From Eledone cirrhosa (Eukaryota), in contig OZ024742.1 in NCBI GenBank assembly GCA_964016885.1, forward strand, positions 306,776,001-306,840,000: a stretch of 64,000 nt of DNA, read 5' to 3'. Shown piece by piece: positions 3,670 to 58,779 of this stretch. The translations under genes were made by a program, and so were the position numbers. Under the pieces are notes generated by a model, which saw only the letters and a program-made list of their open reading frames with translations, was not told the origin of the DNA and ran no database searches. Each line of letters opens with the position of its first letter. Position 1 is the stretch's first letter.

Positions 3670-3672
<3 letters not shown>

Positions 3673-4198
3673 GAGTTTATGTTGGTTGTATACCAACACC
3701 TCAGTATACAGGCTGGAGCACTCGACGAAGTGCGCAGGTTGGTTTGGTTACTCCGGAGTAGTGTAAAATAAAGTTAAATAAAAGTCAAATGATTAAAATT
3801 TAGCTTCGTTTATTACTGCTATATATATTTTAGTGACATCCATCTTTGGCTGTGACCTCTTCAGGCAGTTTGAATTAGTATGGTATAGACAAGTACATAT
3901 GTTGTTTAGGTGTATAATATTGTCAATACTCTGATATGCCCAGTTCCTTGTTGGGTTGTTAATTCACTGAGGAACATATGACTCCAGTTCCTGAGTGAAT
4001 TAACAACCCAACAAGGAACTGGGCATATCAGAGTATTGACAATATTATACACCTAAACAACATATGTACTTGTCTATACCATACTAATTCAAACTGCCTG
4101 AAGAGGTCACAGCCAAAGATGGCTGTCACTGAAATATATATAGCAGTAATAAACGAAGCTAAATTTTAATCATTTGACTTTTATTTAACTTTATTTTA
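3670..4198 (-). mobile_element. HHR-bearing PLE-terminus element (family B) with a ~435-bp fold-back palindrome
   Basis: 3764-3975 is a near-perfect inverted copy of 3987-4198. 3670-3870 is homologous (reverse complement) to 42630-42834. Confidence 0.85.
4093..4147 (+). ncRNA. Type I hammerhead ribozyme (mirror copy at 3815-3869, minus strand, has GAAA>AAAA)
   Basis: ACTGC-CTGAAGA-GGTCACAGCC(aaagat)GGCTGTCACT-GAAA-TATATATA-GCAGT. Stem III is palindromic. Confidence 0.85.
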
Positions 4199-4763: not shown

Positions 4764-4790
4764 GTGTGTATATATATATATATAAATATA

Positions 4791-5378
4791 GGTAGAAGTT
4801 AATATGTCCAGGGATACTGAGGTAAATATTTATATTATATTTTTTAATGTATTTTGAAAAATTGATTGAATTTTACTTGTTCTGCTTATCTTAATATTAA
4901 AGTTCTGGTGTATCAAATTAACACCATTGAACAACCTTGAATCATAGACAACCTATGTATTTCTAGGGGTACCTAGTATCCCTGGACATATTAACTTCTA
5001 CCTTTTTCTCCGTCCGTTGAGAACAATCCTGTTGCTCTACTTGGCTGCTATTTTTTTAGTAGTAATTGTAGACAGCAAGTCTTTGATTTTCCCGCTTTTA
5101 CTTCGGTCCAGTTTACATACGGGTCAATTTTACGACCTTTCAGACCTTTATTAGCTGGCAGGAGGTTGTATATTTTGTCGTTCCTGGGACGTTTAGCCCT
5201 AGGAAGGGAAAATGCTTCTCTGATGAGCTTTGGTTTTCCATCATAAATCCATCGGATTTATGAGGTTTTACAAAGCGAAACTGATCAGTAAGGACCACTA
5301 GGAGAGGTAAATATTTATATTATATTTTTTAATGTATTTTGAAAAATTGATTGAATTTTACTTGTTCTGCTTATCTTA

Positions 5379-5380
<2 letters not shown>
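4791..5380 (+). mobile_element. Retrozyme-like HHR element family C copy 1 (485-bp unit, partial tandem, 28-bp 5' inversion)
   Basis: 4821 onward repeats at 5306. 4791-4818 is the reverse complement of 4975-5002. Flanks are (TA)n. Confidence 0.85.
5216..5294 (+). ncRNA. Type I hammerhead ribozyme
   Basis: TTCT-CTGATGA-GCTTTG..(TCATAAATCC/GGATTTATGA)..CAAAGC-GAAAC-TGATCA-GTA-AGGA. GUA triplet. Confidence 0.9.
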
Positions 5381-5469
<89 letters not shown>

Positions 5470-5685: not shown

Positions 5686-5690
<5 letters not shown>

Positions 5691-6332
5691 GATAAGCAGA
5701 ACAAGCAAAATTCAACCAATTTTGCTTGTTCTGCTTATCTTAATATTATAGTTCTGGTATGTCAAATTAATACCATAGAACAACCTTAATACATAGACAA
5801 CCTATATATTTCCAGGGGTACTTAGTACCCACGGGCATATTAACTTCTTCTATTAATATCTCCGTTATGTTGAGAACAAATCTGTTGTTTATATTTAGCT
5901 GCTATTTTTAGTAACGAGATAGACAACACGTCTATGCTTTTCCCGCTTTCACCTCGGGTAGTTCACGTACAGGTCATTTTTCGGCCTTTCGAATCTGTGC
6001 TAGCTGGCAGATAACAATATATTTTATCGTTCCTGGGTCTTTAGCCCTAGGAAAGGAAAATGCTTCTCTGATGAGCTTTGATTTTCTATTGGAAATCCAT
6101 TGGATTTCTGGTGTTTTACAAAGCGAAACCGATCGGTAAGGGCCAAAAGAATAGGTAAATATTTAAATTATATTTTTTTAAATTTTGTTTTTAAAAAATT
6201 GGTTGAATTTTGCTTGTTCTGCTTATCTTAATATTATAGTTCTGGTATGTCAAATTAATACTATAGAACAACCTTAAATCATAGACAACCTATATATTTC
6301 CAGGGGTACTTAGTACCCACGGGCATATTAAC

Positions 6333-6337
<5 letters not shown>
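5686..6337 (+). mobile_element. Retrozyme-like HHR element family C copy 2 (488-bp unit, different start point, 5' inversion)
   Basis: 5723 onward repeats at 6211. 5686-5720 is the reverse complement of ~6198-6232. It is a diverged relative of copy 1. Confidence 0.85.
6064..6142 (+). ncRNA. Type I hammerhead ribozyme
   Basis: TTCT-CTGATGA-GCTTTG..CAAAGC-GAAAC-CGATCG-GTA-AGGG. The palindrome ACCGATCGGT covaries with ACTGATCAGT of copy 1. Confidence 0.9.
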
Positions 6338-12331: not shown

Positions 12332-12372
<41 letters not shown>

Positions 12373-13270
12373 AGAAGGAGGCTAGAACGGGAAGAATAAC
12401 TACTGGATAGAGGGAGGCTAGAAAAGGAAGAATAACTGAAAATACAGGAAGGCTATAAATTGAAGAATACATACGGAAAGATGGAGTACAAAAAGGGAAC
12501 GGAAACTAGTAATACAGGGAGACTAGAAAGAGAAGAAAAACTACTGATAGAGGGAAGCTAGAAATGGAAGAATAACTAGGAATAGAGAGCGGCTAGAGAG
12601 GGAAGAATAACTAGGGATACGGGGAGGCTAGAAATGGAAGATTAATTATTGATAAGGGGAGGGTAGAAATGGAAGATTAACTATTGATAGGGGGAAGTTA
12701 GAAATGGAAGATTAACTATTGATAGGGGGAAGTTAGAAATGGAAGATTAACTATTGATAGGGGGAGGCTAGAGAGGGAAGAATAACTAGGCATACGGGGA
12801 GGCTAGAAATGGAAGATTAATTATTGATAAGGGGAGGGTAGAAATGGAAGATTAACTATTGATAGGGGGAAGTTAGAAATGGAAGATTAACTATTGATAG
12901 GGGGAGGCTAGAAATGGAAGATTAACTATTGATAGGGGGAAGCTAGAAATGGAAGATTAACTATTGATAGGGGGAGGCTAGAAATGGAAGATTAACTATT
13001 GATAGGGGGAGGCTAGAAATGGAAGATTAACTATTGATAGGGGGAGGCGAGAAATGGAATATTAACTATTGATAGGGGGAGGCTAGAAATGGAAGATTAA
13101 CTATTGATAGGGGGAGGCTAGAAATGGAAGATTAACTATTGATAGGGGGAGTGTAGAAATGGAAGATTACCTATTGATAGGGAGAGGCTAGAAATGGAAG
13201 ATTAACTATTGATATGGGGAGGGTAGAAATGGAAGATTAACTAGGGATAGGGGGACGCTAGAAACGGAAG
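12373..13270 (+). repeat. 35-bp purine-rich minisatellite (~25 units)
   Basis: Unit GAAATGGAAGATTAACTATTGATAGGGGGAGGCTA (e.g. 12911 and 12946). A 175-bp higher-order repeat occurs at 12596/12771. Confidence 0.95.
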
Positions 13271-13362
13271 GTTGTCCCAAAAGTTCCGAGCGTTTTTTAA
13301 TATGCAAAAAGGCATATAAATAATTGACCTTCAATAAATTTTATTCAATGAAATAACTTCTA
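13269..13362 (-). mobile_element. Mariner right-end fragment
   Basis: Reverse-complement similarity to 11785-11871, including the TIR (AGGTTGTCCCAAAAGTTCCGAGCGTTTTT). Confidence 0.75.
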
Positions 13363-13364
13363 TT

Positions 13365-13750
13365 AGGGGGATTGGCAGTGTCGGTAGAAGGTCGAAGCCT
13401 TGCTTTACAGCATAGAGTTACGCCCCTTTAAGGTCTGAGTTTAAATCGAGCCGAGGTTAACTTTACCTTTCGCACTGGGTTCGATTTAATCGACTTTTCC
13501 CTCCCCCAAAATTGCTGGCCTTGAGCCTATATAAGAAACCATTATTATTAATGACCTTTGCGGTGGATTGGCAGTATCGGTAGAGGGTCAGACGCCATGC
13601 TTTGACGCATAGAGTTACGGTCCTTGCCATTCTGAGTTCAAATCCCGCCGAGGTTACTTTGCCTTTCATCCTTACGGGGTTGATAAAATAAAGTACCAGT
13701 AATACACTGGTTAATTTCTGGCCTTGTGCCAAAAGTAGAAACAATTATTA
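13365..13750 (+). mobile_element. Two tandem tRNA-derived SINEs (Octopus-like family)
   Basis: TGGCAG..GGTAG A-box, GAGTTCAAATCC B-box, conserved GCCGAGGT..TTTGCCTTTCATCCTT.CGGGGT.GATAAA..AAGTACCAGT, and (ATT)n tails. Confidence 0.8.
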
Positions 13751-13836: not shown

Positions 13837-14035
13837 TAACGAAGGCAGTGTGGTAAGGAACCAGATGGACCATAACGCACCAGAGTACTCAGTACTTAGG
13901 GTAGTAGGGTGGGTAATAGGAAATGGTTAACCTTGACGGCAGAGCTCAAGCCTTTTCGAAGACTATTTCTGGACGGTCCAGAAATAGCCGTCGAAACGAC
14001 TTGAGCTCTGCTGTCGGGGTTAAACATGTTTCTAT
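13837..14035 (-). mobile_element. ~200-bp hairpin-ended element (family D) copy 1, containing a half-HHR
   Basis: Homologous to 14817-15013 and 43927-44121. The terminal ~120 bp forms a hairpin, and flanks are (TA)n. Confidence 0.8.
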
Positions 14036-14362
14036 ATATATATATATAATAATAATACTATTTATAGTTATCTATATACTATACGCTTGCATATGTATTG
14101 CTAATGTACTCTTTCTTTCTCAATGCTCCTTTCTCAATGCCTCTTTAATTATTAGACTATTCTCTTGTAATATTCTCTTGTATTATCTGTTGCATGTATT
14201 CCACTGTGTGCTTCTAATTTGAATTTGAATTTTTGTACAATTCTCGTAAAATATATGTCACACCTATTCCACCCTGTAAATACGAAACTGTTGCTCACAA
14301 CATCAATATATATGTATCTATATTATTGTTCAGTTGAATATATATAAGAATAAATAATGTAT

Positions 14363-14408
14363 CTTGTTAATCGGGAGTTCCATCTGCTTCTCGGGGTCAT
14401 CAGACAAG
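14363..14408 (-). ncRNA. Degenerate HHR-like motif
   Basis: Minus strand reads CTTGT-CTGATGA-..-GGAACTCCCGATTA-ACAAG. Stem I is intact, but the GAAA box and stem II are eroded. Confidence 0.4.
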
Positions 14409-14684
14409 AAATAAGCCTTCAATAGTAGAAACAGTTCAGATAAACGAAGATTTATGGGGGGATTAATTGTACTGCCTCTACATTGAAATCCATCAAAACA
14501 TGTACATGTTCCCCATCGAAACATGAACTATTTCACCAAATTTAAATCCATGTAATATACCTAACAATTATAAACTATTTATTGTCAGATTAAAGAAAAA
14601 ACAATCTTTAAATATACTCCTTTCCTTACTTTTATTTTTTACCTATAATCTTCGATTTATTCAAAACTTACCCCCTTTTGCAAC

Positions 14685-14755
<71 letters not shown>

Positions 14756-14783
14756 CTGTGCGCGTGTATGTGTGTGTCTGTAC

Positions 14784-14815
<32 letters not shown>

Positions 14816-14816
14816 G

Positions 14817-15012
14817 TAACGAAGGAAATGTGTTAAGGAACCAGATGGACCATAACGCACCAAAGTACTCAATACTTAGGGTAGTAGAGTGGGTAATAGG
14901 AACGAGTATGACCCCGACGGCTGAGCTCAAGCCGTTTCGACGGCTAATTCTGGACCCAGAATTAGCCGTCGAAACGGCTTGAGCTCAGCCGTCGGGGTCC
15001 TACTGGTTCCTA

Positions 15013-15013
<1 letters not shown>
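14817..15013 (-). mobile_element. Family D copy 2, near-perfect hairpin at 14896-15013
   Basis: GACCCCGACGGCTGAGCTCAAGCCGTTTCGACGGCTAATTCTGG-ac-CCAGAATTAGCCGTCGAAACGGCTTGAGCTCAGCCGTCGGGGTC. Confidence 0.85.
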
Positions 15014-15099
<86 letters not shown>

Positions 15100-16026: not shown

Positions 16027-16265
16027 TGTTTCTTTATTAGCCACAGCGTCACACAAGAAGGGGACAAATACAAAGGGGGAAGTTTACATACAATAAAAAC
16101 GTGTAAAATGTTATCACAAATGCAATTTAAAAAATTAGTCGATTTTCCCCAATGGGGGGAGACAGTTCATATAGGTAACACATAACCCCGAAAAAATGTG
16201 AAACCCTCATCTCCAGGAGTACGAAGAGTTTGTACTCCTTTCCTCTCCTCCTCCTTTTCCTCAAC

Positions 16266-19200
16266 CTACAGGCTGATATAGAGAGAAGGCCCATTCACTC
16301 GGGCCAATCTCGCCACTTTCACCCACCTTTCATAAAACTTGCTGGGGTACAGCACCTCTCTCTCCATCCTGATTCTTCTTCCAAAGTGGTATTTGAAAAA
16401 AATAATCAGTTGTTGGCCGGAGAGAAAGGTGTCTGACCTCAGCCCTTTCAACCTTGTCCACCATACAACCTCTTTCGCCATAGCTATCACACAAAGGAAA
16501 ACCGCCTCTCCTTCGTTTTTGAAAGAGGGTAGCGGAGTGATCATGACAATGGACTCGGTGGTCAACCGGATTGGTCCCACCCGCGACAATAGTCTTTCTA
16601 CATAGCCCCCAGGTCAGTGACACCCGGGCAGTGTATGAATGCGTGCGCGACGGTTTCTTCGTTACGCACGCATCTCGGACAGATCTTTTTTGCAGGGTCC
16701 CTGCTCGGGCGCCCATGTCTGTAGAGCTTGTCTCGAACTGGTAGAGCTCCTCGGTAGCACTGCCAGGCCAGGGACTTTTGGAAGTTGTCCATCGGTCCCG
16801 GGTGGAAGGTCCTACCGAACAGACTGGCCAGTTCATCTTCCTCTACGCCTAGAGTTTCACCGAGCGCGTCGTCGCACTTGCTGCGGATCAACTCTCTATA
16901 GAATGACGAAGTGGAGTCTCCACTGATCGCCGGGTCCGCCTGCCAGAGGGCTGTGAGCGCTTGAGCACATTCGATGTGCCAGTCGCCCATTTTCCTCGGT
17001 CTTTGCTTGACCCAGGACTGCAGCTCGGTCAGCGAGACGAGTCGTGGGAAGGCTCGCCTCACGAACGGGGCCCACACCGGTTGTCCGGTGAGGAATACGT
17101 AGAGATGCCGCAGCCTGAGTGCGTGTTTGCGCATCGTCAACCACGGCATCCCCAGCCCTACGTTAGAAGGGTGTTGGCAGCAGATGGATCTTCTCACCAA
17201 AGGAGCCCGCCTCTTCCAAAGGAATTGGAAGAGCGCGCGCTCCATTTTGGAGAGCGTTTTGGCTGGACAAGGCACGACGGTCAATCGGTAGTAGATGGCG
17301 GACGCTATAAAAGTTTTCGCCACCTCCGCTCGACCTTTCAAGAATAGTTTGCACTCGGCCCACTTCTGGGTGAGTGCAAACACCTTGGCCGTCACTGCGT
17401 TCCAGTTCTTCTCCACCTGGAGGTCCGGACCAAACCAGACCCCAAGCAGCTTTACCGGTCCTTCCGTCCAGCGTCCGACGACGCCATCGGAAGGCATCGG
17501 TTTGCCTCTCCACGATCCGAGTTGCAAACCGATGGAGTTGTCCCAGTTCAGCTTCGCTCCTGTAAAACTTTAGTATTCCTTCAGTAAGGTGCCGACTTCC
17601 TCGATTTGCGAGGCGCTCGAAACCATTACTGTGACGTCGTCGGCGTAGGCCGACGCCGCTTTCCGCAGTCCCGGTTCCAGAGGGATGCCCTGCAATAGCT
17701 CCAACTTCCGCAGTAGTGGCTCGAGAGTCAGTACGTACAGAAGGGAGGAGAGAGGGCATCCCTGTCGAATGGATCGCGTAATATGGAACGGCTCCGAGAG
17801 GTAGCCGTTCACCTTGACCCTTTAGCAGATATTGCTGTTGTGCATTGCAGCAATCCAGCCCCTGAACACGGGTCCGAAGCTTGTCGCCTCGAGCACCGCA
17901 TCCAGGTAACGATGGTCAACCCTATCGAAAGCCTTAGACTGATCCAAGTTGATCAGGGCCCCACCGAAGCCGGGTTTACACCCAACCCTCTCTATGATGT
18001 ATCGCATGAGGTGGAGGTTGTCGTGTATGGACCTTGTCGGGATTGCGCATGTCTGCGCTTCTCCCACCAGGTTCTCGACGACAAGCGCCAGCCTCTTTGC
18101 CAACACCTTGGCCAAAATCTGTAACTCTGTGTTTAGCAGAGTTATGGGCCGGAAGTTGCCTGTGTCATCCCCCTTATTCTCGTCCTTCCTGACTAGTGTG
18201 ACCACGCCCCCGGTTACAGAACTGGGAATTCTCCCGTTCTGTTGTCAGTTGCAGTAGACCGCTTCCAGGAGACCGGAGAATAAGTCCGGCATTGCTACGT
18301 AAAATTTGTAGGGTAGACCGTCGAGACCTGGAGATTTGCATTTGCCGCATTGGCTTAGCGCGACCACTATGTCAGCGGCTGAAATCAACTTTTCGCAGAA
18401 CTTTGACTCGCTGTCCGAGAGTCGTGGTAGGCCGTCGAGGTATGGACCGAAATCCATAGCCTCTCCCGGCGCGCGGCCCCGCCCGAACAGTTGAGCAAAG
18501 TGTCGCTCAATGGCCGCACACATCTGCTTCGGCTCACGTATCACGCGTCCGTTTTGGTCCTTCAAAGACCGAATCGTGGACTTGTTGCCACTTTTTGCCT
18601 CCGTCACTCGGGCCCAGCTAACAGCTTTGGCTCCCTCGTTTCCCAGAGCACGTATTTTGCTTCTGACAACGCAGCCCTCGTGCTTTGCGTCGAAGAACTG
18701 GTCCAAGGCCGTTCTCGTTGCTAGCACGCTGGCTACGTTGCCACTTCTAATTGCCTCTTCTACTTTATCTACCAGTTTCTTCTCGGTTCTATTTCTATCT
18801 AACGCTAATTCTTTACTAAAAACTAACGAGTCTAATCTAACTGCCTTCTTGAGAGAACCACCATCTGTTGTTGACAATGGCTCCTGTCAAGTGCTGTTTA
18901 ACTAAAGTGCTAATCCGTCTACTGGAGGCTTTGCTTGTCGGTAACGACAAGTTCAGCTTCCAGTAGCCGGGTCCTTGTCTATGGGTTCTATCAAGATTGG
19001 CCATGCAGGTCACTAGTTTGTGATCTGAATAGGCAACCATGAACATTTGTGGACAGCTTAACATGTCCCTATCCTTATTTCTAACTAGAACCCTATCTAG
19101 GTATGATCTAGATGTTCCGCTGCGATTAGTCCAGGTTCATAGTGGCACAGTCGGAAAATCTAGTCGATATCTATCGGCCAGGTCAAATCTGCCGTTAACT

Positions 19201-19706
19201 GTTTAAGGCTGTTACACGCCCCCTCCTCCTTTATCTGGACATGCTCCCACATAGTCCCAACGTGCATCTAGGATTCCATTCCAGTCCCCCACTAAAAGCA
19301 AGGAGCGGGACGTTCCCAGAAAAGTCTCTACATGTTTGAAGAAGTCTAGCTGTTGTGTCCCGGGTGGGGCATATGCAACCACCAGTCTGAAGGCTCCACC
19401 TTCACTACCGTCAACGTCTAGGACCACCAGTCGACCCTCCGAGTCCAGATGTACCGTCTGTGTTACGAGGCCCAGGTGTTTCCGCAGCAAAACGGCAACT
19501 CCGCCCCCACCCCCCGGTTGACAGAGAGATGCGTAGATCTCAAAGTCATCGAAGATGGGGGCCAGCTGTCGCTCGCTGTGAATCCTGTACTCGCAAATGG
19601 CTACCACATCCATACTGTGCGACCTGAAGTTGTTTAAGAGTTTGCCCTGTTTCCAGGGTATCGCCAGGCCGCGTACATTCACACATCCAACTCTTATATT
19701 GGCCAT
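16266..19706 (-). pseudogene. LINE ORF2 (AP endonuclease + reverse transcriptase + C-terminal Zn motif), disrupted
   Basis: VGCVNVRGL, LLVGDWN, YSDH, KSPGLDGLP, FRPITLLN, LDQSKAFDRVDH, IRQGCPLS, AYADDV, LLGVWF and CPRC..ETVAHAFIHC occur, with several stops and frameshifts. Confidence 0.92.
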
Positions 19707-21549
19707 GTTGGTGCTGGAAATTTAAAAGAAGGGGAAAAGAAATCACTTACCTCTTCGTCTTCTGGGAACCAGGCTGCACGATTTCCATGGGGGTGTTTGA
19801 GGGGTTGTTTGGTGGTGGTTTCTGGTGGGATGGGGACGGAGATTTTTGGTGGAGAGGGGGTGTATGGTGGGATGGAGTGTCTGGGGTGGGGGTATCTAGG
19901 GTGGGGGTGTGGAAACATTTTAACAGGACTCGATTGTATATTTGACGCAGGCGTTACCTACGTCGTTAGGAAATTTTCCTTTTAACTGTTTACGTGTGTC
20001 CATGGAGATCCTAATCATTTTAAGGTTAGGATTCTCCGAATACTGTGTAAAAGATTTCCCTTCGGTCTCGACCGAAGGTTTTTTATATATGGGGTCTGTT
20101 AAAGTGTTATTCTTAGTATTTATGTAGGTGTAACATTTTTGTTGCGTTGTGTTGCTTTTTGTCTGTGGTTCTTGTGTGTGTTTATGTTTTGTAGTAGGTG
20201 TTTTGTTTTCAGGAGGGGGTGTTTTTGTTTGTGCTGTTTGCGTTGCTTGTGTGTTTGTTGCATTTTTGTTTGTGTTATGTCTTTTCTTTTTTTCTTTTTA
20301 CTGGTCGGAAAAGCTCTCCCTCATCGTCACTGGGTGACGATGATGAGGCCTCATCCGTGTTGTTGGGGAGGGGTACATTTTGGGGAGTTGTTATGTGTGT
20401 GGGTGTTTCTGGAGTTGTTTTAGTTGGGGAGGGGTTGGGTGGGACTGTGTTTGTCGTTTGTTTTGTTGTCACTATTTTTTATGTTGTTGTTGTCGTTGTG
20501 GTGGTGATGGTTGTGCTGGTGTTGCAGGTGTTGGCAGTAGTGCCTTTTTGGGGCTAGTTAGCCGAGGACAGGAAGCTCTCAGGTTACCCCTGCTTAAGCA
20601 GTGGTAACATGAGGGCCGCCTACCCTCGACCGAAATGTTTATGTATATAAGCCCATCCAGCAGAACACGTTCCGGGATCCTAGCTAATCGTTCTGGCGTC
20701 ATTTGGACCAGAATTTCCAGGCTAGATCGGCTAAACAGGACTTACCTACCGATATTATTGAGTCTTTTTGGAGGTTTAAAATCCACATAGTACCCACCAA
20801 ATATCAATATTTGGTGTGATGCTTTCGATTTTTATTTTCTGTGTTCTTTTCCCCATGTAAGTGGGGGAAAATGTGAACAGCGGTAACACAATTGGCGACA
20901 CAGAATATCTCTGTGCCGTCAATTGGTTTTTCACCAGAATGGATAAACTCCCGTAGAGTCTACCCTTCTGAATGAAAGCAATGTCTTTTAAGGCATCTTT
21001 TAAAACCAACTCAATTTCACCTTGTGAAAGTTTAGTTGGTTTTCGGGTTTTGTTTGAGACTGTCCTGAAAACCAGTTTTCAAGGCAGTTTCTCTTCGCAA
21101 ATCTGGGGGAGAGTTTATGGAAAATGATCCGTTCTCCCCCAAAGTTACGTACTGTCTGGCGTTATTCAAAAGATCATTTGCATTTGAAATATCCACCGGA
21201 GTGTAGCTTACCGTTTTCTTTACGGTTTGCGCAAACGGTATTTTGTCGTTTACTTCCTTGTTGCAGTTATTGGTCTTGTTGTTGTTGTTGTTGTTCTTGT
21301 TGTTGGTGTTGTTTTAGTTCATAGTATTGTTGTTGTTGTTGTTGCTGGTGCCGCTGGTTGTGTTGTCTTTGTCCATTGTTTCACACTTTTGGCCATGGCA
21401 ACGTCAAGTTGTTAGTCAGCAGGTGAACAAAATCCTTCCTCTGGCTGAACTTTGTCTGAGACATCTGCTATTATGACAGTGGGATGGGGAAGCTGTAAGC
21501 ATATCTTCCCCGTTCCTCCTGTTGGTGAAGAAGCTGTTGCCTCAGCCAT
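19694..21549 (-). pseudogene. LINE ORF1 (gag-like), disrupted
   Basis: Candidate start MAEATASS at 21549. VEGRRPSCYHCLSRGNLRASCP is a CCHC-like knuckle (H>N), flanked by low-complexity Q/T/P/K regions. Confidence 0.7.
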
Positions 21550-25069: not shown

Positions 25070-25440
25070 CTTTCGAACACTGGCACAAGAGCAACAATTT
25101 GGATGAAGGAATTTACTGATATTTGGAAGGGAAATAAGGCAAGGCTGACACCGGTGGGGATTTGAACACAGAACATAAATAACTAGAACAAATATTGCTA
25201 AGCATTTGCCAACGCTCTAACTACTCTGCCAATCTATATTCCTCACAATCCATTCTATTTGTTGCGCAAGGAAAGCAATTTGGAGGAAAAGGAAAGTCGA
25301 TTATATCGACACCAGTATTTTAAATTAATTGCCCCAAAAGGAGGAAAGGCATAGTTGACCTCAGCGGGATTTGAACTCAGTATGTAAAAAGCCAAAAAAT
25401 ATACTGCTAAGCATTTCTCACACTTCAAACAACTTTGTCA
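25070..25440 (-). mobile_element. Two degraded copies of the Octopus-like tRNA SINE
   Basis: Reverse-complement B-boxes GGATTTGAAC and GAAAGGC..GACCTC.GCGGGATTTGAACTCAG match 13560-13750. Confidence 0.65.
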
Positions 25441-38941: not shown

Positions 38942-39546
38942 CGATATTAATAAATGGAAACTATATTTATAAAACCATATTTATTTCATTATACATATTT
39001 CAGGGATACCACATTAAATTATGGTATGCCTTCATCAGACAAAATACAATATATAACAGTTTTACAAATAGCTTAGACGTACCCTTTTAAAATGCAACCA
39101 TTACTTTTGGAGGCTGTGTGGATAGTGATTTGTTTATATTATTTTAATAAGTCATTGTGTTAAGCACAATTAGAAAAAGACGGAGAGAAAGAAAAAAAGA
39201 AAAAAGACGGAGAGAGAGAAAGAAAACCTGGAGAAATATCGGAGAGAGAGAGAAATGTATGGAGAAAAGAAAGAGATAAATAAAGATAGGAGGAAATACA
39301 AAAGAAAGAAAAAAAGAAAGAAAGAAGAAAAGCAAAGGAAAGCAACAGAGAGATATCAAGTCATCATACAGATAGAAAAACTCAAGAGAGAGAAATACTA
39401 TATAGAGAGAGGGGAAGATAATGAAAACTTTACGTCATGTCATATTAAGTTGAGTTAACAATTTATATGAAATGAATAATAAAAATATAAATATCAATAT
39501 TCATGAATGGGACATAGATATATAATATGAGAAATTAAAATAGATT

Positions 39547-42288: not shown

Positions 42289-42834
42289 TTAGATACTAGG
42301 CAGTACTGGGTTAGTGAATGTCACTGATGAAATCTTACCGAATCTTGAAAGAACTACCAATCCGGACCACCGCTGGCAAATAGGAAACCTGTTCACAGAG
42401 AAAAATAGAGAAATATATTTTCTTTCCCCAAAAGAATTGATTGCAATCAAGCATATAGCATATACTTTGATATACACCGCTATTATCCTTAATTGCTGCC
42501 CGGGTGTGTTGTTAGTCCTCAGGTTCCTTTGAGGACTAACAACATACCCAAGAGCTGGACATATCGATGAATTACCAGAGTGGAACACATTACAACACCA
42601 TGTTTACCTTTTTTTCTACATTAATTCTTACTACCTGATGAGGTCACAGCCAATAATGGCTGTCACTGAAATATATATAGCAGAAAATTAGAATAAACGA
42701 AGCCAACTTTAACATGTTTGACTTACACATTTTATTTTACATTACTCCGGAGTAAACAAACCAGCCTGCGTACTTCGTCGATTGCTCCATCCTGCATACT
42801 GAGGTGTTAGTAAACAACCAACACATACTCAACA
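42289..42834 (+). mobile_element. PLE 3' remnant, family B copy 2, with an internal hairpin (42502-42549) and an HHR (42631-42683)
   Basis: CTAC-CTGATGA-GGTCACAGCC(aataat)GGCTGTCACT-GAAA-TATATATA-GCAG. The tail matches the reverse complement of 3670-3810. Confidence 0.8.
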
Positions 42835-43926: not shown

Positions 43927-44121
43927 TAACAAAGAGAGAGTGGTAAGATACCAGGTGGACCATAACGCACCAGAGTACTCAATACTTAGGGTAGTACAGT
44001 GGGTAACAGGAAATAGAGTCAGGACCCCGACGTCTGACCTCCGGCCGTTTCGACAGCTAGATCGGATCTCGCTCTCGAAACGGCCGGAGCTCAGCTGTCG
44101 GGGTCCTGACTCTTTTCCTAT
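43927..44121 (-). mobile_element. Family D copy 3 (hairpin at about 44008-44120)
   Basis: Same GGACCATAACGCACCAGAGTACTCAATACTTAGGGTAGTA body and terminal fold-back, in (TA)n. Confidence 0.8.
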
Positions 44122-46238: not shown

Positions 46239-46695
46239 TATTGGTAAAAGGAAAAGAAAATGCTGACAAATTGTTCCCAGTGAAAAATAGTTTAATTAGG
46301 AATAAGTAAAAATTAGTAATAAATATTGGTTAGTATTCAGTTTTGGTTTTAAGTTTTTACCGGTTGCGCATTTCTAATGCTTTTCAAAAATAATTTTGAG
46401 ATAGAGCGCCCGTGATTTTTACTCTAATCTGATTAGTTTTGGAAATTCTACCTGTTTTATGTGAAAAAAGTGGCTCCAGATGTAATAAAATAAGTTTCGC
46501 GCCATCTCAAAATTATTTTTGAAAAGCATTAGAAATGCGCAACCGGTAAAAACTTAAAACCAAAACTGAATACTAACCAATACTTATTACTAATTTTTAC
46601 TTATTCCTAATTAAACTATTTTTCACTGGGAACAATTTGTCAGCATTTTCTTTTCCTTTTACCAATATATCACAACTCGTGTGTTACACCTCTAT

Positions 46696-46700
<5 letters not shown>
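46239..46700 (+). mobile_element. PLE-terminus element family F: 164-bp inverted arms with a variant HHR, in (TA)n
   Basis: 46239-46402 is the inverse of 46504-46667, with a ~100-bp spacer and a 33-bp tail. The motif TTT-TTGAAAA-GCATT(aga)AATGC-GCAAC-CG-GTA-AAA is at 46516-46551. Confidence 0.75.
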
Positions 46701-46769
<69 letters not shown>

Positions 46770-47421
46770 AGAAGCAAAAAATTGCTTATTGTGATCCAGT
46801 TTTTGGTTAAGAAAGCCAGTTTCATGGATGGTTTCAACGTACGGTTAGGGGTAACTCCACAAGTTTGTAAGAATTCCTTTCAATCTTGGAATATAAAGTA
46901 TAAAAGAGAAAATACAGGTAAGCATTAAGAGTAGGATGTAATCCAGGTATTTACGACCGTTTCATTGGTAAGTGCAACCTTATATTGCTATACTGCAAAT
47001 AGCAGCCACTCAATTATAATTGTTGTTCACAGTCCAAATTTTCAAAATAGTGAGTTACTCTTGAAATAATTCTTAATATATAGAGAAAAACATTTATTTG
47101 GAATTGTATTTACTAGTATAGAGAGAGAGGAATCAGGAGGTGGGGGGACAGACGGCATAGTATAGAGAGAGAGGAAGGGGGAAGAGGTAGGAAGTAGAAT
47201 GACAAACTGAGGTGGAGGTAGGGGTAGAGGTGGAAGGATTCTTTGGTCAGTTTTGATAGCAGACATCATGTCGTGGAGTGTAGTGAGTTAAAGAGAATTA
47301 AATAGATAATAGTGGGAGGGATGGATAGAGAGGGAGAGAGAGAGGGGGGAGATATAAAGAGATAAATATATATATATATATATATACACACATACATACA
47401 CATACATATATACACACACAT

Positions 47422-47504
<83 letters not shown>

Positions 47505-47778
47505 CATACACACACACACATATACACACATATATATATATATATAAAAAAATAAAAATAAAGATAATAATGACAAAAATAAAAGCAAAGAAGGGGGTGA
47601 GGAGGAAGAAAAGAAAAGATAGCCAAGAAGGGGGAAGGAAGGAAGAAAACGAAGAAATAGAAGAGGAATGAGGGAGAAGGGGGGGATATATGTATTGGTT
47701 TTGTGGGTAATTAAAGGGTTTAGATATAAGAGGGTATAAAGTCTAAGTATATGCAGTTTGTCAGTTGGTAGTAAGAGG

Positions 47779-49657
47779 TTAAGTGTTCGATTTGTAGTGC
47801 GAAAATTTCTCTTTGAGTCTATGGTTACAGTAAATTGATCTCTCAATTTTATTGTTGAGTAACCTATTCTTCGAACTTAAGATGTGGAACAGCTCAAGGT
47901 CGCATAATCGACAGCTTCTCATACCACTCCGATATGGAGGCGCGTTTGATAATTTTTTCCACTTCAGGGTGTATTGATGGTTACTTTCCCTCAGTTGCCA
48001 CGTCTTGTTTGCAAGGGTAGTTGCATAACGGTGCTGGGAATGTTTCATTGCGTAACGGTGTGTATACCAACGAGCTTTAAAAGTATTCCCAGTCGCTCCG
48101 ATGTAATACCATTTCTGGTTGTCTGATTCCACTGTGCATTGGTAAACCAGGTTAGACTGCATACATTCATTTTGTAATGGACAGGTTTCAGGTAGGTGGC
48201 AGTTGCATTTCTTGTTATGGGCAACTTTGGCATTATTTGTGGGCTGCGATGCCTGAACAAGTGTGTTACGTTTTGTTTGCCTATTAGCGGGTGGTTGTGT
48301 ATTAGATATTCTTTTGTGTTCGGTGGTAATTGTATTGTTATTGTCGTAAATTTGTGTTTTGGTGTTGTTATGTATCTTTTTAGCGTTAAGCATCTTAATG
48401 TGTGCTTCTATATTTGGTGCCGTGGAGTAAGATAGTCTAATAGATTTAGTGTTAAGGATTTTGCTGTATCTATGTGAATCTGGAAAGTGCCTATTTATTA
48501 TTCTAAAGAAAGTAGAGGGTAGGTTAGTACTAATAGAGGTGTTAAATATGGGGTTATACCAAATATATTTTCTACTGCGTGACTTGTTTGATTTCGATGT
48601 TGTACTTCTATTTGCCGTATACTTTGCAGTTCTATGCGTAAATGTGTGTATGCGTGTGTTTCTGGAGTTTGTGTTATGCGTGTTCGTGTGTGCTTCACAG
48701 AGGCTTTCATCTATATATTCTACTCTATCTAAGTGGCCTGCCTTGTCTAATGCGGTATTGTAGTATTCTGCATGTTCTTCGAAGATTTGCCGGTTAGATG
48801 AGAGGCGGGAGATCCTAAGGGATATGCTGCGTGGAATGGATTTAATTATTGATAGTGGGTGGTTTGAGTTACAGTTGATGTATGCTAAGTTTTCATTTAT
48901 CTTGTGAAAAGGTCTTATAAGTCCCGTATTTAGGTTAAGCGTCACATTTAGAAAGTTAACTGTTTTAGTGCTATACTCGTACGTTATGCTTAGGTCTAGT
49001 TTTCCGAGAGTCTTTCTAATATTCTTACGGAGTCTTTCTATGCTCTAGTTATTTAGGTTCTTAACTAGGAGAAGGGCGTCGTCTCTGTAGATTCCACCGT
49101 GAAGGTCGCTAAACTCGCTTTGTAAACTATGGGCTATGTAAATACCTACTAAGTCTGTGACTTGAGCCGAGTCGTTAGCCCTCATCGTGATGTCAAAGTT
49201 ATTTAATCTATCCTTACGTTCCCAATAGGCGTTTTCAAATTTAATTATTGTTTTCCTAGCAGCTAATATGATTTTTATCTCGTCGTCTGTTATGTCAGAA
49301 TTGGCTTTGGCGAATGCTAAGGCTTTATCCAAGGTGTTGGGGGATATAGATGAGTAATAATCGTTAATGTCAAATTGTATAAATTTAGATACTTCTTTGT
49401 TAGCTATATTGTTAAACCATTTAATTGTTTCCGTAGCGTTACCCCATAGTTTAATCACTAGTTTATTCTTCATTTGTGCTATCACTCTGTCTAATATATG
49501 TTTACTAATTTTCCCGATGTCCGATTCGGATGGGCATATAAGTCTAATAGTGGGGTTATAATCAAAATTTACCTTGTGGTCTTTGAGGGTAAATGTGGGG
49601 GTACATGGCTTAAGTGGCTCCGTTCCGTCGTCTATTCCTAGGTGTTTGACTATATTG
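47779..49657 (-). pseudogene. PLE RT + GIY-YIG endonuclease ORF with a single in-frame TAG at 49045
   Basis: TLKDHK..RLICP, QFDINDYYSSI, FDITM, GIYRDD, SNHP, the CxCx5Cx5C linker (CNCHLPETCPLQNEC), LVY..YIGATG..FKARW and CRLCDLE are present. The two ORF-track pieces are in the same frame. Confidence 0.92.
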
Positions 49658-49969
49658 GACAAAACATCAAATGTGTATACGATGGATGTTAATACATACA
49701 ATAGCTTCATACGGAAAGAATTACATAGGAAATACAAAAAAAACAAATGGGGCGGCACTGATAAACATCAACAACGAGGCACACAATATAGTCAATATAT
49801 CCCCCCCTCCCCCTTCTCCCTCATTCCTCTTCTATTTCTTCGTTTTCTTCCTTCCTTCCCCCTTCTTGGCTATCTTTTCTTTTCTTCCTCCTCACCCCCT
49901 TCTTTGCTTTTATTTTTGTCATTATTATCTTTATTTTTATTTTTTTATATATATATATATATGTGTATA

Positions 49970-50000
<31 letters not shown>

Positions 50001-50390
50001 ATATATATGTATGTGTGTATGTGTGTGTATATATATGTATGTGTATGTATGTGTGTATATATATATATATATATTTATCTCTTTATATCTCCCCCCTCTC
50101 TCTCTCCCTCTCTATCCATCCCTCCCACTATGATCAATTTAATTCTCTTTAACTCACTACACTCCACGACATGATGTCTGCTATCAAAACTGACCAAAGA
50201 ATCCTTCCACCTCTACCCCTACCTCCACCTCAGTTTGTCATTCTACTTCCTACCTCTTCCCCCTTCCTCTCTCTCTATACTATTCCGTCTGTCCCCTCAC
50301 CTCCTGATTCCTCTCTCTCTATACTAGTAAATACAATTCCAAATAAATGTTTTTCTCTATATATTAAGAATTATTTCAAGAGTAACTCAC

Positions 50391-50492
50391 TATTTTGAAA
50401 ATTTGGACTGTGAACAACAATTATAATTGAGTGGCTGCTATTTGCAGTATAGCAATATAAGGTTGCACTTACCAATGAAACGGTCGTAAATA
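50391..50492 (+). ncRNA. HHR with U3-A8 variant core and long stem II insert (mirror copy at 46948-47049, minus strand)
   Basis: TATT-TTGAAAA-T-TTGG..(65 nt)..CCAA-T-GAAAC-GGTC-GTA-AATA. Confidence 0.6.
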
Positions 50493-50539
50493 CCTGGATT
50501 AAATCCTTCTCTTAATGCTTACCTGTGTTTTCTCTTTTA

Positions 50540-50575
<36 letters not shown>

Positions 50576-51242: not shown

Positions 51243-52058
51243 TTTCTTTATTAGCCACAAGGGCACAAAAGGGGACAAATACAAACGGGGAGTTTACATA
51301 GAGGTATATGAAAATAAAACTATTAATAAAATAATAAATAACAATTAAAATCGCCAAAAGGGGGGAGGTGTTACACAGGGGTTGTACACACCCTGTAAAA
51401 AAAATGTACAACCCTCACCTCCAGGGGCAACAAGAGTGAGTACTCCCTTCCTCTCTAACTCTTTTTCTTCAACCTACAGGCTTATATAGAGAGCCCAAAC
51501 ACTCGGGCCATCTTTGCCACATTCACCCACCTTTTATAAAATTTGCTGGGGTACAGCACCTCTCTCTCCATCCTGATTCTTCTTCCAAAATGATATTTCA
51601 AAAAACGAATCAGTTTCTCGCCGGAGAGAAAGGTGTCTGACCTCTGCCCTTTTAACCTCGTCCACCAGATAACCTCTATCACCATAGCCAAAACACATAG
51701 GAAAACCGCCTCTCCCTCGTTTTTGAAGGAGGGTGGCGGTTTGATCATGACAATGGACTCGGTGCTCAACTGGATTGGTCCCACCCGCGACAATAGTCGT
51801 TCTACATAGCACCACAGGTTGATAACGCCAGGGCAGTGTACAAATGCGTGCGCGACGGTTTCCTCGTCGCGCACGCATCTCGGACAGATCTTTTTCGAAG
51901 AGTCCCTGCCCGGGCGCCCGTGTCTGTAGAGCTTGTCTCGAACTGGTAGAGCTCCTCGGTAGCACTGCCAGGCCAGGGACTTTTGGAAGTTGTCCATTGG
52001 TCCCGGGCGGAAGGTCCTACCGAACAGACTGGCCAGTTCGCCCTCCTCTACGCCTAGA
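51243..52058 (-). mobile_element. 5'-truncated copy of the Tx1/L1 LINE in (GATA)n
   Basis: Collinear with 16030-16855 (MDNFQKSLAWQCYRGALPVRDKL..CPRC..HC). GATA repeats flank both sides. Confidence 0.93.
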
Positions 52059-52077
52059 GAGATAGATAGATAGATAA

Positions 52078-52147
<70 letters not shown>

Positions 52148-54259
52148 AGTAGATAGATAGATAATAATTAGATAGATAGATCGATAGATAGATTGATAGA
52201 TAGATATACATCCATACGTATTTCACACACAGAGGTACGTGCATATTTCTCTACATATAAATGTATACATATGTGGACATATAGATACACGTATTTACTT
52301 ACATCCCTACGTACTTATGTGTACTTGTGTCCTTTGTGCTTGTGTGTGGGTGTGAGAGCGCATATACATTTATTCATATATATGTGTTTCACATTTATGT
52401 ATGTATTTCAATATGTGAAAACGTGTTATCGCAATTTGAATACAATTTGTGCGAAAATGTGTATATTATAATTGAACACTCTTTGTGATGGTACGTGGTT
52501 CAATGGTTAGGGTGTTCGAATCAGGACCATAATTAATTGGTTTGATTCGCGGTGGCGAGTTTTGTCTTTGTGCATGACAATTTATTTCAAGATTTATCAA
52601 TACACTCAGCATGCAAAAGCGAATTTTACCTGTAATGCAATGGCTTTGTCTTTTTACACAATATGTCACGGGGAATATCTCAGAAGCGAAATAAATTAAA
52701 AAGTTTGTGGAATGCTCAGGTTTTCACCTTGTAATATCAAGAGTAGGCTCTTCCGTTTCTCAAATAACTGAAGAACGCATCATCGCACCGACGGAGGTCT
52801 AACACACACACTACCCCCTCTATTTCGTTCCACCGTCTAGATGCTCTAAATTATGAATTAAATATGAGATCTTGAAACTATCTTACAGACACTTAAACTG
52901 ATGTAAATTTGTCTGATATTTTTGTTGTCTTATTAACATTTATGTTTGTGTTTATATCTGTTGTTGTTTCCCAACTTTGCTATTTGCCTGCAAGCTAATA
53001 TGTGAGTTAGAAAATTAATTTAATGAAATCATTAAGGCATTCAATTAAATCAAATATTAAGAACTAATAAATAAAAATAACATCAATAAGTGAATAAGTA
53101 AAGAAAATAACTCATGTTTTCGCCTTATAATATTTTGTTATGGTACTATAAATATTAAATTTGTATTCATTTTATTATTATTATTTTTGTTGTTGCTGTT
53201 ATTATTATAATTATTTCCACCATCATCCTCAATACCGCCAACATTATAAGCAGCAATAGTGGTGATGATATTGATGGCCGTGTTGGTGACTTTGTTGGTG
53301 ATGATGGTGTAGGTGGTAGTATCGTGGTGGTAATGGTAATATTGAGATTGGTAGTGGTAGAAGTAGACATGGCAAGAGCCCAGGCAGAAAGACAAGATAG
53401 AATCTTGCATTATAGTTGAACCTCAGTTTTAATACCAAAACGAACAAAACGCAACTCAGAAAAATAGAAAAAAAAACAACTAATAGCCTTCAATATAGTG
53501 TCTCTCCTTGAATTGATGTGATTACTTCACATATTTACATTATCTCTGTATCATCATCATCCTTATCATCATCATCATCATCATATTATTATTATTATCG
53601 CCTAATATAGTTGGCACTTAGCCATGCACCCATATATATATATATATACATACAAAAACATATATATATGTGTGTGTGTGTGTATCCAAGTGATGTTGAC
53701 GGACGCAGAAATAAGTACTCAATACCGAAATAGAGTTTAATAAGATTATATATTCTGAAGGAGAATAGCTTCAAAGCCCGATGACTCAGCACCTGATTGC
53801 GTTTAAGAATATGATATTCCAAAACTCAACATTATCATCGAAATACGTCTGTAAATTGTCATATATCGGCATTATAAAACCCACCATCAAATGGAGTATT
53901 TGTACCGAGAGAAAAGCTTATAAAGTACGTGGTACTATATCCAATTGATGCACCACAGAAAACCTGTATATCATCGATTGATGAACGAGTAATCTGAGTT
54001 GCCTACATATAGCCTGAGTCTATTGCAATACATCCGTCTTAAAGTAATCCCACTAATATACTAGATAATTACTGCCTTATACATAAAATCCAAGAATACT
54101 GGATAATAATATATATGAGATCGTCCAAATAGTGGATGACATATTCATTTATCTACCAAATTCATGTCTACCCATGCTTGGCTTCGTTTTATTCCTCGTG
54201 TTACTAGTGGCATCCCTCATCATCCCTAATGTTACGTATAAGAATGGCAGAATATGGTA

Positions 54260-57111: not shown

Positions 57112-58024
57112 GTCTGTGTGTGTGTGTCTGTGTGTGTGTGCGTGTGCGTGTGTCTGTGTGTGTATGTGTGTGTGTGTGTGCGGTATCTGTGTATTTCTGT
57201 TTAGGCATGTGTATTCTCTGTTTGTGTGTGAGTGCTATTAAATTTCAACATATATAAGTATGACGAAAAACACTTCATTTCGAGAACATGGAAGAAAGAG
57301 AGATAGAGAGAAAAAAGAAATAGTGGCATAGGAAATTAGAGAGTGGGTTATTAGCATAGGAGAGAATTTAAATATCTGTAGTCTTGAGGAAAACAGATTG
57401 GTGCATATAAAGGAAAAGTATAATTAAGAAATTAACAATGAAATATATAGAAAATAAGAAAAATATGCTTGTTTCAGATTGTATCTATTTTTTCGCTATC
57501 AAATTCCTTTGTCCTATACAAAATAATGAAAATGATCTGTGGATTGAAATATGTAATAATCACAATTTTGTAAATGCCATTATTACAACAATAGACAGGA
57601 CTGATGTTGGCGAGCTTTGAAAGTGTTTAAGACATCGGATAGATTTGTCGTACGGTATTCTTTTCTGGTTTTCTGCATTAAGTCAGTTAAGTACTTTGGT
57701 CGATTCTTCTTCTTCTTCTTCTTCTTCTTCTTCTTCTTCTTCTTCTTCTTCTTCTTCTTCTTCTTCTTCTTCTTCTTCTTCTTCTAAGGATTATGTTCAA
57801 ACCTGCTGATAGATGACATTAGTAACTATGAGACGGGTGAGGAGAAGAAGACCTGACGCAAATGCTTGCAACACTATAGATTCCAGGCATAATGATATAA
57901 TCGAAGAATTATGATAGAAGCCACTGGCACGTGTTATCGGGAAGCCAGACTGAATACAGAATCAAGGCGTTTAAAGCGAACCTCTTAAGCCCGTATCTTA
58001 ATTTGCGCAAGGAGCAGGTGTAAT

Positions 58025-58205
58025 AATTGTTTCTACTTTTGTCGCAAGGCCACCAATTATCCAGTGCATTACTGATACTTTATTTTATCGACCCCGTAAG
58101 GATGAAAGGCAAAGTTAACCTCGGCGGGATTTGAACTCAGTCCGTAAAGGGACGTAACTGTGCTGCAAAGCATGGCGTTATACCCTCTACCGATACTGCC
58201 AATCC
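58025..58205 (-). mobile_element. Octopus-like tRNA SINE
   Basis: Reverse complement of the 13560-13750 family (ATCGACCCCGTAAGGATGAAAGGCAAAGTTAACCTCGGCGGGATTTGAACTCAG). Confidence 0.8.
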
Positions 58206-58779
58206 AGTAATAATATAGTAGAAATATATACACTTGCACATATCCATGTCTGCACATAGAGTGGTTTTTAATGGTATACTGGAACTACATATAACTGCAA
58301 ATATCCATAACTGCATATAATTGCATAGTAGAATTATATAAAACTGCTAATATATATGTGGGCATATAAGAAGCTTCAATGGCATATTCAATCTTATTAT
58401 AACGACCAACATTCAATGATGGTGCTTTCTCGTCGAATGCTAGCAATAGGGGCAATATATCCTGCTGAAACTCTACATTTCTGAACATGTAAAGGCATAT
58501 TAACTTACTTTGTACTATAAATCACAATAAAGGAGAATGGTATTAAATTTCATACATAAATTCTCGAACAGACTTTAAAAAGATATATATATATGCACAC
58601 ATACATACAAACATACATGCATGCATACATACATATAAACATAGATGCATGCATACATACATATATACATACATACGTACTACATACTAGCGTACGTACA
58701 CAGGCATACATACAAACATACATACATAAAACATACATACATACAGACATACTTAATCGATATCTGACGAAGTCTGCTA

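Follow-up and report, generated by a model that had tools for sequence, protein, structure and literature searches.

How does a short non-coding repeat come to carry one half of a ribozyme twice, in mirror image, and how has such a repeat been spread? This question is raised by family D, a set of hairpin-ended elements of about 200 bp found in a 64,000-nt stretch of Eledone cirrhosa DNA, referred to here as the window. The answer we favor, with a probability of roughly 55%, is that family D is a stub made in trans by the enzyme of a Penelope-like retroelement (PLE), the template being a short RNA whose start probably lies within a hammerhead.

Copies of family D in the window

Blastn located three copies of family D, at 13837-14034, 14817-15012, and 43927-44120. 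They have a single orientation, and their pairwise identities are 84.6%, 79.3%, and 75.0%. A search with word size 7 returned no fourth copy in the 64-kb window. Each copy of about 200 nt consists of an 80-nt segment present on one side only, here called the tail, and two inverted arms of 57-59 nt each, which together make a hairpin of 113-118 nt. In copy 1, the tail (13837..13916, minus strand) extends from end A to end B and is flanked by (TA)n. It runs on into the left arm (13917..13974), which is sense on the minus strand and has a decayed half-hammerhead; the right arm (13976..14034, plus strand) is inverted and tail-less, with GAAAC at 13993 and the end of the GTC triplet at 14015. Copy 2 has a one-sided tail at 14817..14896 (minus strand), a left arm at 14897..14955 (minus strand; GAAA from 14938 downwards, triplet end at 14916), and a right arm at 14956..15012 (plus strand), and the half-hammerhead is intact in both arms. 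Copy 3 is made up of a one-sided tail (43927..44006, minus strand), a left arm belonging to a second subfamily (44007..44063, minus strand) with a microhomology of 2 nt at the apex, and a right arm (44064..44120, plus strand) with GAAAC at 44077, the triplet end at 44099, and one G-U pair in stem III.

The hairpins that the initial annotation had placed at the end of each copy were readily recovered. Over 113-121 aligned nt, their self-complementarity was 82.6%, 94.9%, and 88.5%, the fold z-scores were -10.3, -17.0, and -11.1, and none of 200 shuffles was equally stable. The apex sequence varies among the three copies, as had been stated. In all three, an inverted arm adjoins the main arm head-to-head, and the 80-nt tail lies at one end only, outside the inverted repeat; classification as a terminal-repeat MITE was rejected on this ground. 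The one-sided segment had gone unremarked earlier and is the main clue to the origin of family D. A TA-rich microsatellite, (TA)n, surrounds all three copies, and in public records from runs X1, X14, and X4, (TA)n is likewise what follows at 15017.

Family D contains no reading frame for RT plus GIY-YIG, the longest open stretch being 46 codons (not significant). The last 36 nt of the copy 2 tail (14818-14853, minus strand) begin with ATG and are open in copies 1 and 3 as well. Several common variants hit third positions of this ATG and the 11 codons after it, which is not significant; the stretch may represent the beginning of a PLE frame. A tRNA-derived SINE origin is unsupported, since ARAGORN predicted no tRNA gene in family D and Rfam gave no tRNA match. 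By eye, a 5-bp stem with the 6-nt loop TCGAAA resembles a T arm, one base short. tRNA-like SINE copies adjoin copy 1 (13366-13750) and occur at 58021-58206 and 25332-25388; these resemble octopus SINEs. The surroundings further include a 35-nt minisatellite (12336-13273) and a decayed LINE (16029-19721 and 51243-52222; zf-RVT match, L1/Tx1-like by look).

A half-hammerhead motif in the arms

Both arms of copy 2 read GAAAC-GGCT(TGAGCTC)AGCC-GTC-GGGGT, exactly as first described. On the plus strand (14971..14993), this corresponds to the 3′ half of a hammerhead, i.e. the GAAA box, a 6-bp stem III, the GTC triplet, and then a putative stem I strand, GGGGT. The loop of stem III holds the palindrome GAGCTC. 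Considering either strand of the arm plus tail unit, the half-motif (GAAA, a 6-bp stem, and UH) arose in 37 of 20,000 dinucleotide shuffles; with a 5-bp stem, it arose in 164 of 20,000 shuffles of this unit. When the GTC triplet was required, the counts fell to 1 (6-bp stem) and 15 (5-bp stem) per 20,000. The half-motif faces the tail, in the same orientation as the complete hammerheads in the window.

Conservation among the copies is partial. The half-motif is intact in just three of the six arms (two with Watson-Crick pairs, one with a G-U pair), the sixth pair of stem III holds in two of the six, and none of the six pairs showed a two-sided change, with only six arms compared. In the best-supported population variants, GAAAC, the stem III core, and GTC are retained, and the changes within the core, among the variants listed, are C-to-U and compatible with G-U pairing.

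The other half is missing, in agreement with the initial annotation. No CUGANGA half fitting family D lies within the 64-kb window, and as it was found nowhere, the hammerhead ancestry of the family rests on half a motif. A complete type I hammerhead was accordingly rejected, the CUGANGA box and closed stems I and II being absent. Rfam returned no match at gathering score in the window; the 33 weak matches around family D include no hammerhead, and those on the hairpins are generic and miRNA-like. Pattern scans yielded no match in viral contigs and none for the tail motif in metagenome contigs. The stem III motif matched six times in metagenome contigs and three times in genome contigs, and all nine were dismissed as chance (GC 0.64-0.73, no likeness past the motif, no CUGANGA within 150 nt). 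The half-motif is thus above chance level, and an origin of the arms from a hammerhead's 3′ half, as had been proposed, is likely.

These observations bear on a different explanation, in which family D is a fold-back DNA element (a MITE, a Helentron-type element, or a TIR element with a variable interior) and the GAAAC...GTC pattern is due to chance. The lack of covariation in stem III is in its favor, and so are the AGCCGTC motif, which repeats in alternating orientation in the family D sequence, the long inverted arms, and the TA targets. Against it stand the rarity of the half-motif among shuffles and the 80-nt segment that extends beyond the inverted repeat at a single end. We return to it below.

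Abundance and population variants

Matches to a 206-nt family D stretch were found in 20,802 of 17,142,217 contigs of run X1 and in 24,386 of 12,467,656 reads of run X14, both from organism A. Organism B had 8 matching contigs and organism C had 2. The figure for run X1 is a count of contigs, and summed contig depth was not taken as copy number. Counts come from 4 of the 16 listed public runs, runs X7-X13 being left out (under five words or small shares); none of the 16 listed runs was of RNA. If the window is typical, three copies per 64 kb amount to about 47 per Mb. Copies of this non-coding repeat are therefore very abundant.

The two arms of a copy had been reported to share copy-specific changes. 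That changes are common to both arms was borne out. Most of them are common population variants, though, and not specific to a copy: in run X1, 14922 T>A accounted for about 52% and 14947 A>T for about 40% of the depth. Variants common to both arms (e.g. 14922, 14947, and 14979/14980) are common in the population and thus mark subfamilies, not single copies. The comparison of arms and copies suggested earlier gave, for the oldest copy, 11 differences over 59 positions between its own arms and 9-13 over 58-59 positions against the 14817 copy. In copy 2, about 44 nt are identical between the arms, and two positions within the arm differ. Both differences are common population variants, which favors two templates in this one example.

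Transitions appeared to be directional. Among the best 40 of 83 variant rows, all 17 in the tail and left arm, and all 5 in the right arm, give a pyrimidine on the sense strand (p of about 0.0002 and 0.04, respectively, by composition, among the variants listed), and the direction flips at the apex (again among the variants listed). In run X14, 4 of 15 C>T places are among the variants listed. Symmetric CpG decay would not yield such a bias. Selection acting on an RNA in which G-U pairs are tolerated may be the cause, the bias itself not being established. In one contig of run X4, at the loose end behind 14902, the family D tail is joined to other sequence that is richer in GC and may belong to a second family with this tail.

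Arm ends, joints, and inner boundary

All six arm ends in the window fall within 6 nt, at +2 to +7 when the A of TTAGT is set to +1. Longer copies exist: loose ends in three runs continue inward through TTAG on the sense strand, with 1,037 and 1,273 reads (run X14, each side) and 124 and 103 contigs (run X1) extending past the boundary. As many records pass it, an RNA 5′ end at this place would be preferred, not absolute. The sequence inward of the arms is heterogeneous (consensus agreement 0.46-0.49), which would suit the variable interior of a fold-back element. In the longer copies it is AT-rich and, over the up to 30 letters visible, does not complement the stem strand.

In run X14, reads end sharply at 14949 and 14960, but both positions sit on AATT sites of a RAD library; the ends vanish in a variant that destroys AATT (1,444 of 1,651 reads) and were therefore taken as library cuts, not as RNA ends. 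TTAGT resembles an initiator, and in a single contig of organism B, positions -29 to -20 relative to the A of TTAGT are TATA-like, a spacing that we take to fit; this match is one contig in AT-rich DNA, which counts against the run-off step proposed below. PLE terminal repeats hold promoters, TATA plus initiator has been proposed in a rotifer PLE (PMC3846280), and the Drosophila Penelope promoter is TATA-less (PMC2377424).

The inner boundary might instead be a 3′ splice site, in which case the source hammerhead would be split by a spliceosomal intron in loop 2 and completed by splicing. Three inward views end in TTAG on the sense strand, one of them with a pyrimidine run, and one view has CTAAT 14 nt before AG; TTAG, the pyrimidine run, and CTAAT all match splice signals. 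In Drosophila Penelope, moreover, an intron ends at hammerhead helix I (PMC4209133). The branch spacing, however, is short, and AT-rich DNA easily yields such matches. A splice site alone would not stop an RT at this place, and the apexes in the window differ and match no single exon junction. We regard this explanation as very doubtful.

In public contigs, the two halves of family D are joined at varied places. Fifteen of 52 joints were listed, one being a tandem join and 14 involving arms. Among these, 8 of the 14 arm joints land at 14951-14962 and 6 land deeper inside the arm. On the tail side, the cuts are spread between 14859 and 14938. Several joints have unread letters between the halves, so longer arms may hide there. 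Varied cuts on the tail side combined with clustered arm ends fit the joining of one cDNA primed at end A with another primed at end B; varied truncation, moreover, is retrotransposition-like and speaks against a fold-back element (among the joints listed). With differing apexes, the same subfamily markers in both arms, and varied joints, the earlier suggestion that the mirror image is built during insertion appears likely.

Whether the apex is set at stem II is a separate matter. In this proposal, which was also part of the initial annotation, a PLE-type insertion would have its apex fixed by snap-back or strand annealing at stem II, the cDNA folding back and copying itself to end A. The arm ends do sit at the expected closing point of stem II, copies 1 and 3 share a CGG apex, and self-priming has been proposed for palindromic PLE junctions (PMC3846280). 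On the other side, the inward sequence of longer copies does not provide the stem complement, and the joints pair a short piece of tail with a full arm, which is unexpected from one self-copying strand.

Insertions of similar layout in the window

The family D layout recurs in five further insertions of this stretch; complete hammerheads are present in three of them, and another encloses a PLE frame. A strict hammerhead descriptor found four complete motifs in the window, compared with none in the reversed and none in the complemented control. The insertion at 3672-4196 has arms of about 215 nt, a 94-nt tail, and, at 4098, a complete hammerhead in which one stem II pair is mismatched (by eye). 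Its relative at 42502-42831 has a complete hammerhead at 42635 and a short palindrome at the same 5′ boundary; the palindrome is 48 nt, compared with the full 431-nt palindrome of 3672-4196. In this family, the head-to-head junction is fixed about 110 nt upstream of a complete hammerhead. Such a whole-hammerhead sibling, with a junction equally fixed and far from the ribozyme, makes snap-back at stem II unnecessary, and we hold the latter to be unlikely. The specific site named in the initial annotation is therefore not sustained.

The insertions at 4790-5382 and 5688-6335 contain complete hammerheads at 5220 and 6068, respectively. Each has one A-type and one B-type end, in opposite left/right order. 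Their family has a tandem unit of about 490 nt and a hammerhead loop 2 of about 40 nt, and by eye the junctions of both look microhomology-like. A further insertion in (TA)n (46242-46705) forms a palindrome with arms of about 190 nt and a one-sided extension of about 40 nt; no hammerhead was seen in it. A decayed Hydra-like PLE (46765-50549, minus strand) comprises a frame (47779-49767), inverted repeats (46891-47508/49932-50549), and a one-sided extension, or tail, of about 130 nt. The descriptor found no complete hammerhead in this PLE, only a GAAAC...GTA stretch at 46963. Pfam assigned no family to the frame at 47779-49767; HTH_animal and GIY-YIG occur in some members of the Atlas clusters nearest to it. 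The part at 49045-49767 aligns by eye with the published Hydra-1_Obim protein, which, together with the richness in microsatellites, suggests an octopus-type host genome. No sequence is shared between family D and the PLEs of the window.

Two additional features were observed: (i) a 5′-truncated PLE (676-2260) with a weak GIY-YIG match and a complete hammerhead at 2004; and (ii) a pair of 600-nt repeats (2297-2903 and 38944-39539), 89% identical, with minus-strand hammerheads at 2391 and 39038.

That the layout is common to hammerhead-bearing and PLE-frame insertions is difficult to reconcile with a fold-back DNA element, and together with the evidence given above, this leaves such an origin distinctly unlikely.

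Predicted folding and possible cleavage in trans

In all full-copy transcripts tested in which the motif is intact, the predicted pairing probability of stem III was 0.0000. For a single arm plus tail unit it was 0.70; the competing hairpin AGCCG-TCGAAA-CGGCT, which hides the GAAA box, made up 0.29 of this ensemble. Inserted hairpins would thus be poor substrates, and trans-cleavage of full copies, as suggested in the initial annotation, is unlikely on these predictions; a source RNA with a single arm may still be cleaved.

The hairpin copy of 200 nt could itself be the replicating unit, cut in trans by a separate CUGANGA strand. The very high abundance would agree with this, as would the retention of GAAAC, the stem III core, and GTC in the population variants and the stem III pairing predicted for single-arm RNA. 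By contrast, pairing is predicted to be lost in full copies, the apexes are not inherited among the three copies, and no fitting partner strand lies within the window. Hammerhead cleavage was, in addition, dispensable for PLE insertion in vitro (PMC11167929). A replicating hairpin of this kind seems highly improbable to us.

A further reading takes family D to be a genome-wide PLE parasite whose single-arm source RNA of about 140 nt keeps only the substrate half under RNA-level selection, with the catalytic half coming from elsewhere, either a separate trans RNA or a spliced upstream exon. The mobile element would then be controlled by a naturally split ribozyme; we view this as a long shot.

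Comparison with known elements

PLE insertions often show an inverted 5′-truncated copy beside the main one, together with a tail at a single end and a preference for (TA)n (PMC8557442; PMC3846280). Endonuclease-bearing PLEs share with family D the head-to-head inverted copy, the one-end tail, (TA)n, and a palindromic junction, and also the sufficiency of terminal repeats for mobilization in trans (PMC8557442; PMC3846280). Family D differs from published insertions in lacking a frame, in its total of only about 200 nt, in a tail of 80 nt compared with 30-40 nt (PMC8557442), and in a junction inside the hammerhead, of which just the 3′ half is carried; no autonomous partner was identified.

The protein of the Anolis carolinensis Poseidon PLE (PAc), a predicted dimer, cuts and extends both target strands in vitro, and its RT begins at two internal positions in the RNA, between which the tail lies (PMC11167929), as proposed here for family D. 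Both also have AT-rich targets and a hammerhead shortly upstream of the RT starts. PAc, however, has a whole hammerhead and an ORF; in family D, the triplet precedes end A by 19 nt. Joining of the two cDNAs is inferred for family D and, in the available part of that paper, was not demonstrated for PAc (PMC11167929).

The minimal or dimeric type I hammerheads of metazoan PLEs resemble family D in the C-GAAA-C...GUC half of the core, the variable stems, and the palindromic loop 3 that is typical of PLE hammerheads, and Schistosoma has opposite-strand hammerhead pairs 100-700 bp apart (PMC4209133). Their stem III is usually 1-2 bp, compared with 5-6 bp in family D, which is without the CUGANGA half (PMC4209133). 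The 'half core' hammerheads of Naiads, unlike family D, keep both halves at a distance (PMC8557442). Animal non-LTR retrozymes are likewise short, non-coding, high-copy, and hammerhead-related, with a presumably borrowed RT; they form head-to-tail tandem units with complete hammerheads and circular RNA, whereas family D is head-to-head and single-unit with an incomplete ribozyme (PMC7229834). Assignment to the retrozymes was rejected because the units are single and head-to-head. One head-to-tail join of family D units in run X14 has (TA)n in between.

We found no published description of family D or of half-hammerhead palindromes, and Repbase, Dfam, or the library of PMC13282606 may hold the family. 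The available part of that O. vulgaris repeat paper does not mention hammerheads (PMC13282606). Six family D motifs had no match in the supplement of PMC8557442, where line breaks may hide matches.

Proposed origin

The inverted copy, the one-sided tail, and the TA target make family D likely to be a non-autonomous PLE product. For its formation as a stub made in trans, the following course can be envisaged. A source locus would give rise to an RNA that begins about 16 nt upstream of the GAAA box. As this RNA would start inside a hammerhead loop or stem II, the CUGANGA half would be left behind in the source locus. A PLE RT-endonuclease would nick both strands of a (TA)n target and prime a cDNA on each, one from start site A, which follows the GUC triplet by 19 nt, and the other from site B, a further 80 nt along. 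Both cDNAs, about 58 and 138 nt long, would run off near the 5′ end of the RNA; run-off at an RNA 5′ end inside the hammerhead loop or stem II is probably the simplest reading of the halved hammerhead. Joined end to end, the two cDNAs would give arm, arm, and one tail, with a new apex per insertion. By analogy with PAc, we infer two-site priming with head-to-head cDNA joining. The inserted copies would mostly be dead, having no upstream sequence, and read-through RNA would form a long hairpin hiding the ribozyme half.

Several points weigh against a PLE stub. Neither an autonomous partner nor a source locus was found, the 80-nt tail exceeds the published length (tails of the sibling insertions in the window are 94-130 nt), and target-site duplications are illegible in (TA)n.

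Only if the missing half acts in trans or via splicing would family D amount to a novel type of system. If the PLE-stub reading is right, the family documents both ends of PLE integration in nature on a very large scale, as every copy holds one A-primed cDNA, one B-primed cDNA, and their junction. Counts of apexes and arm haplotypes could then separate twin priming of PLEs on two RNAs from self-priming. Some families filed as 'MITE' or 'unclassified SINE' in such genomes would be PLE products, and the hammerhead could be dropped without loss of spread.
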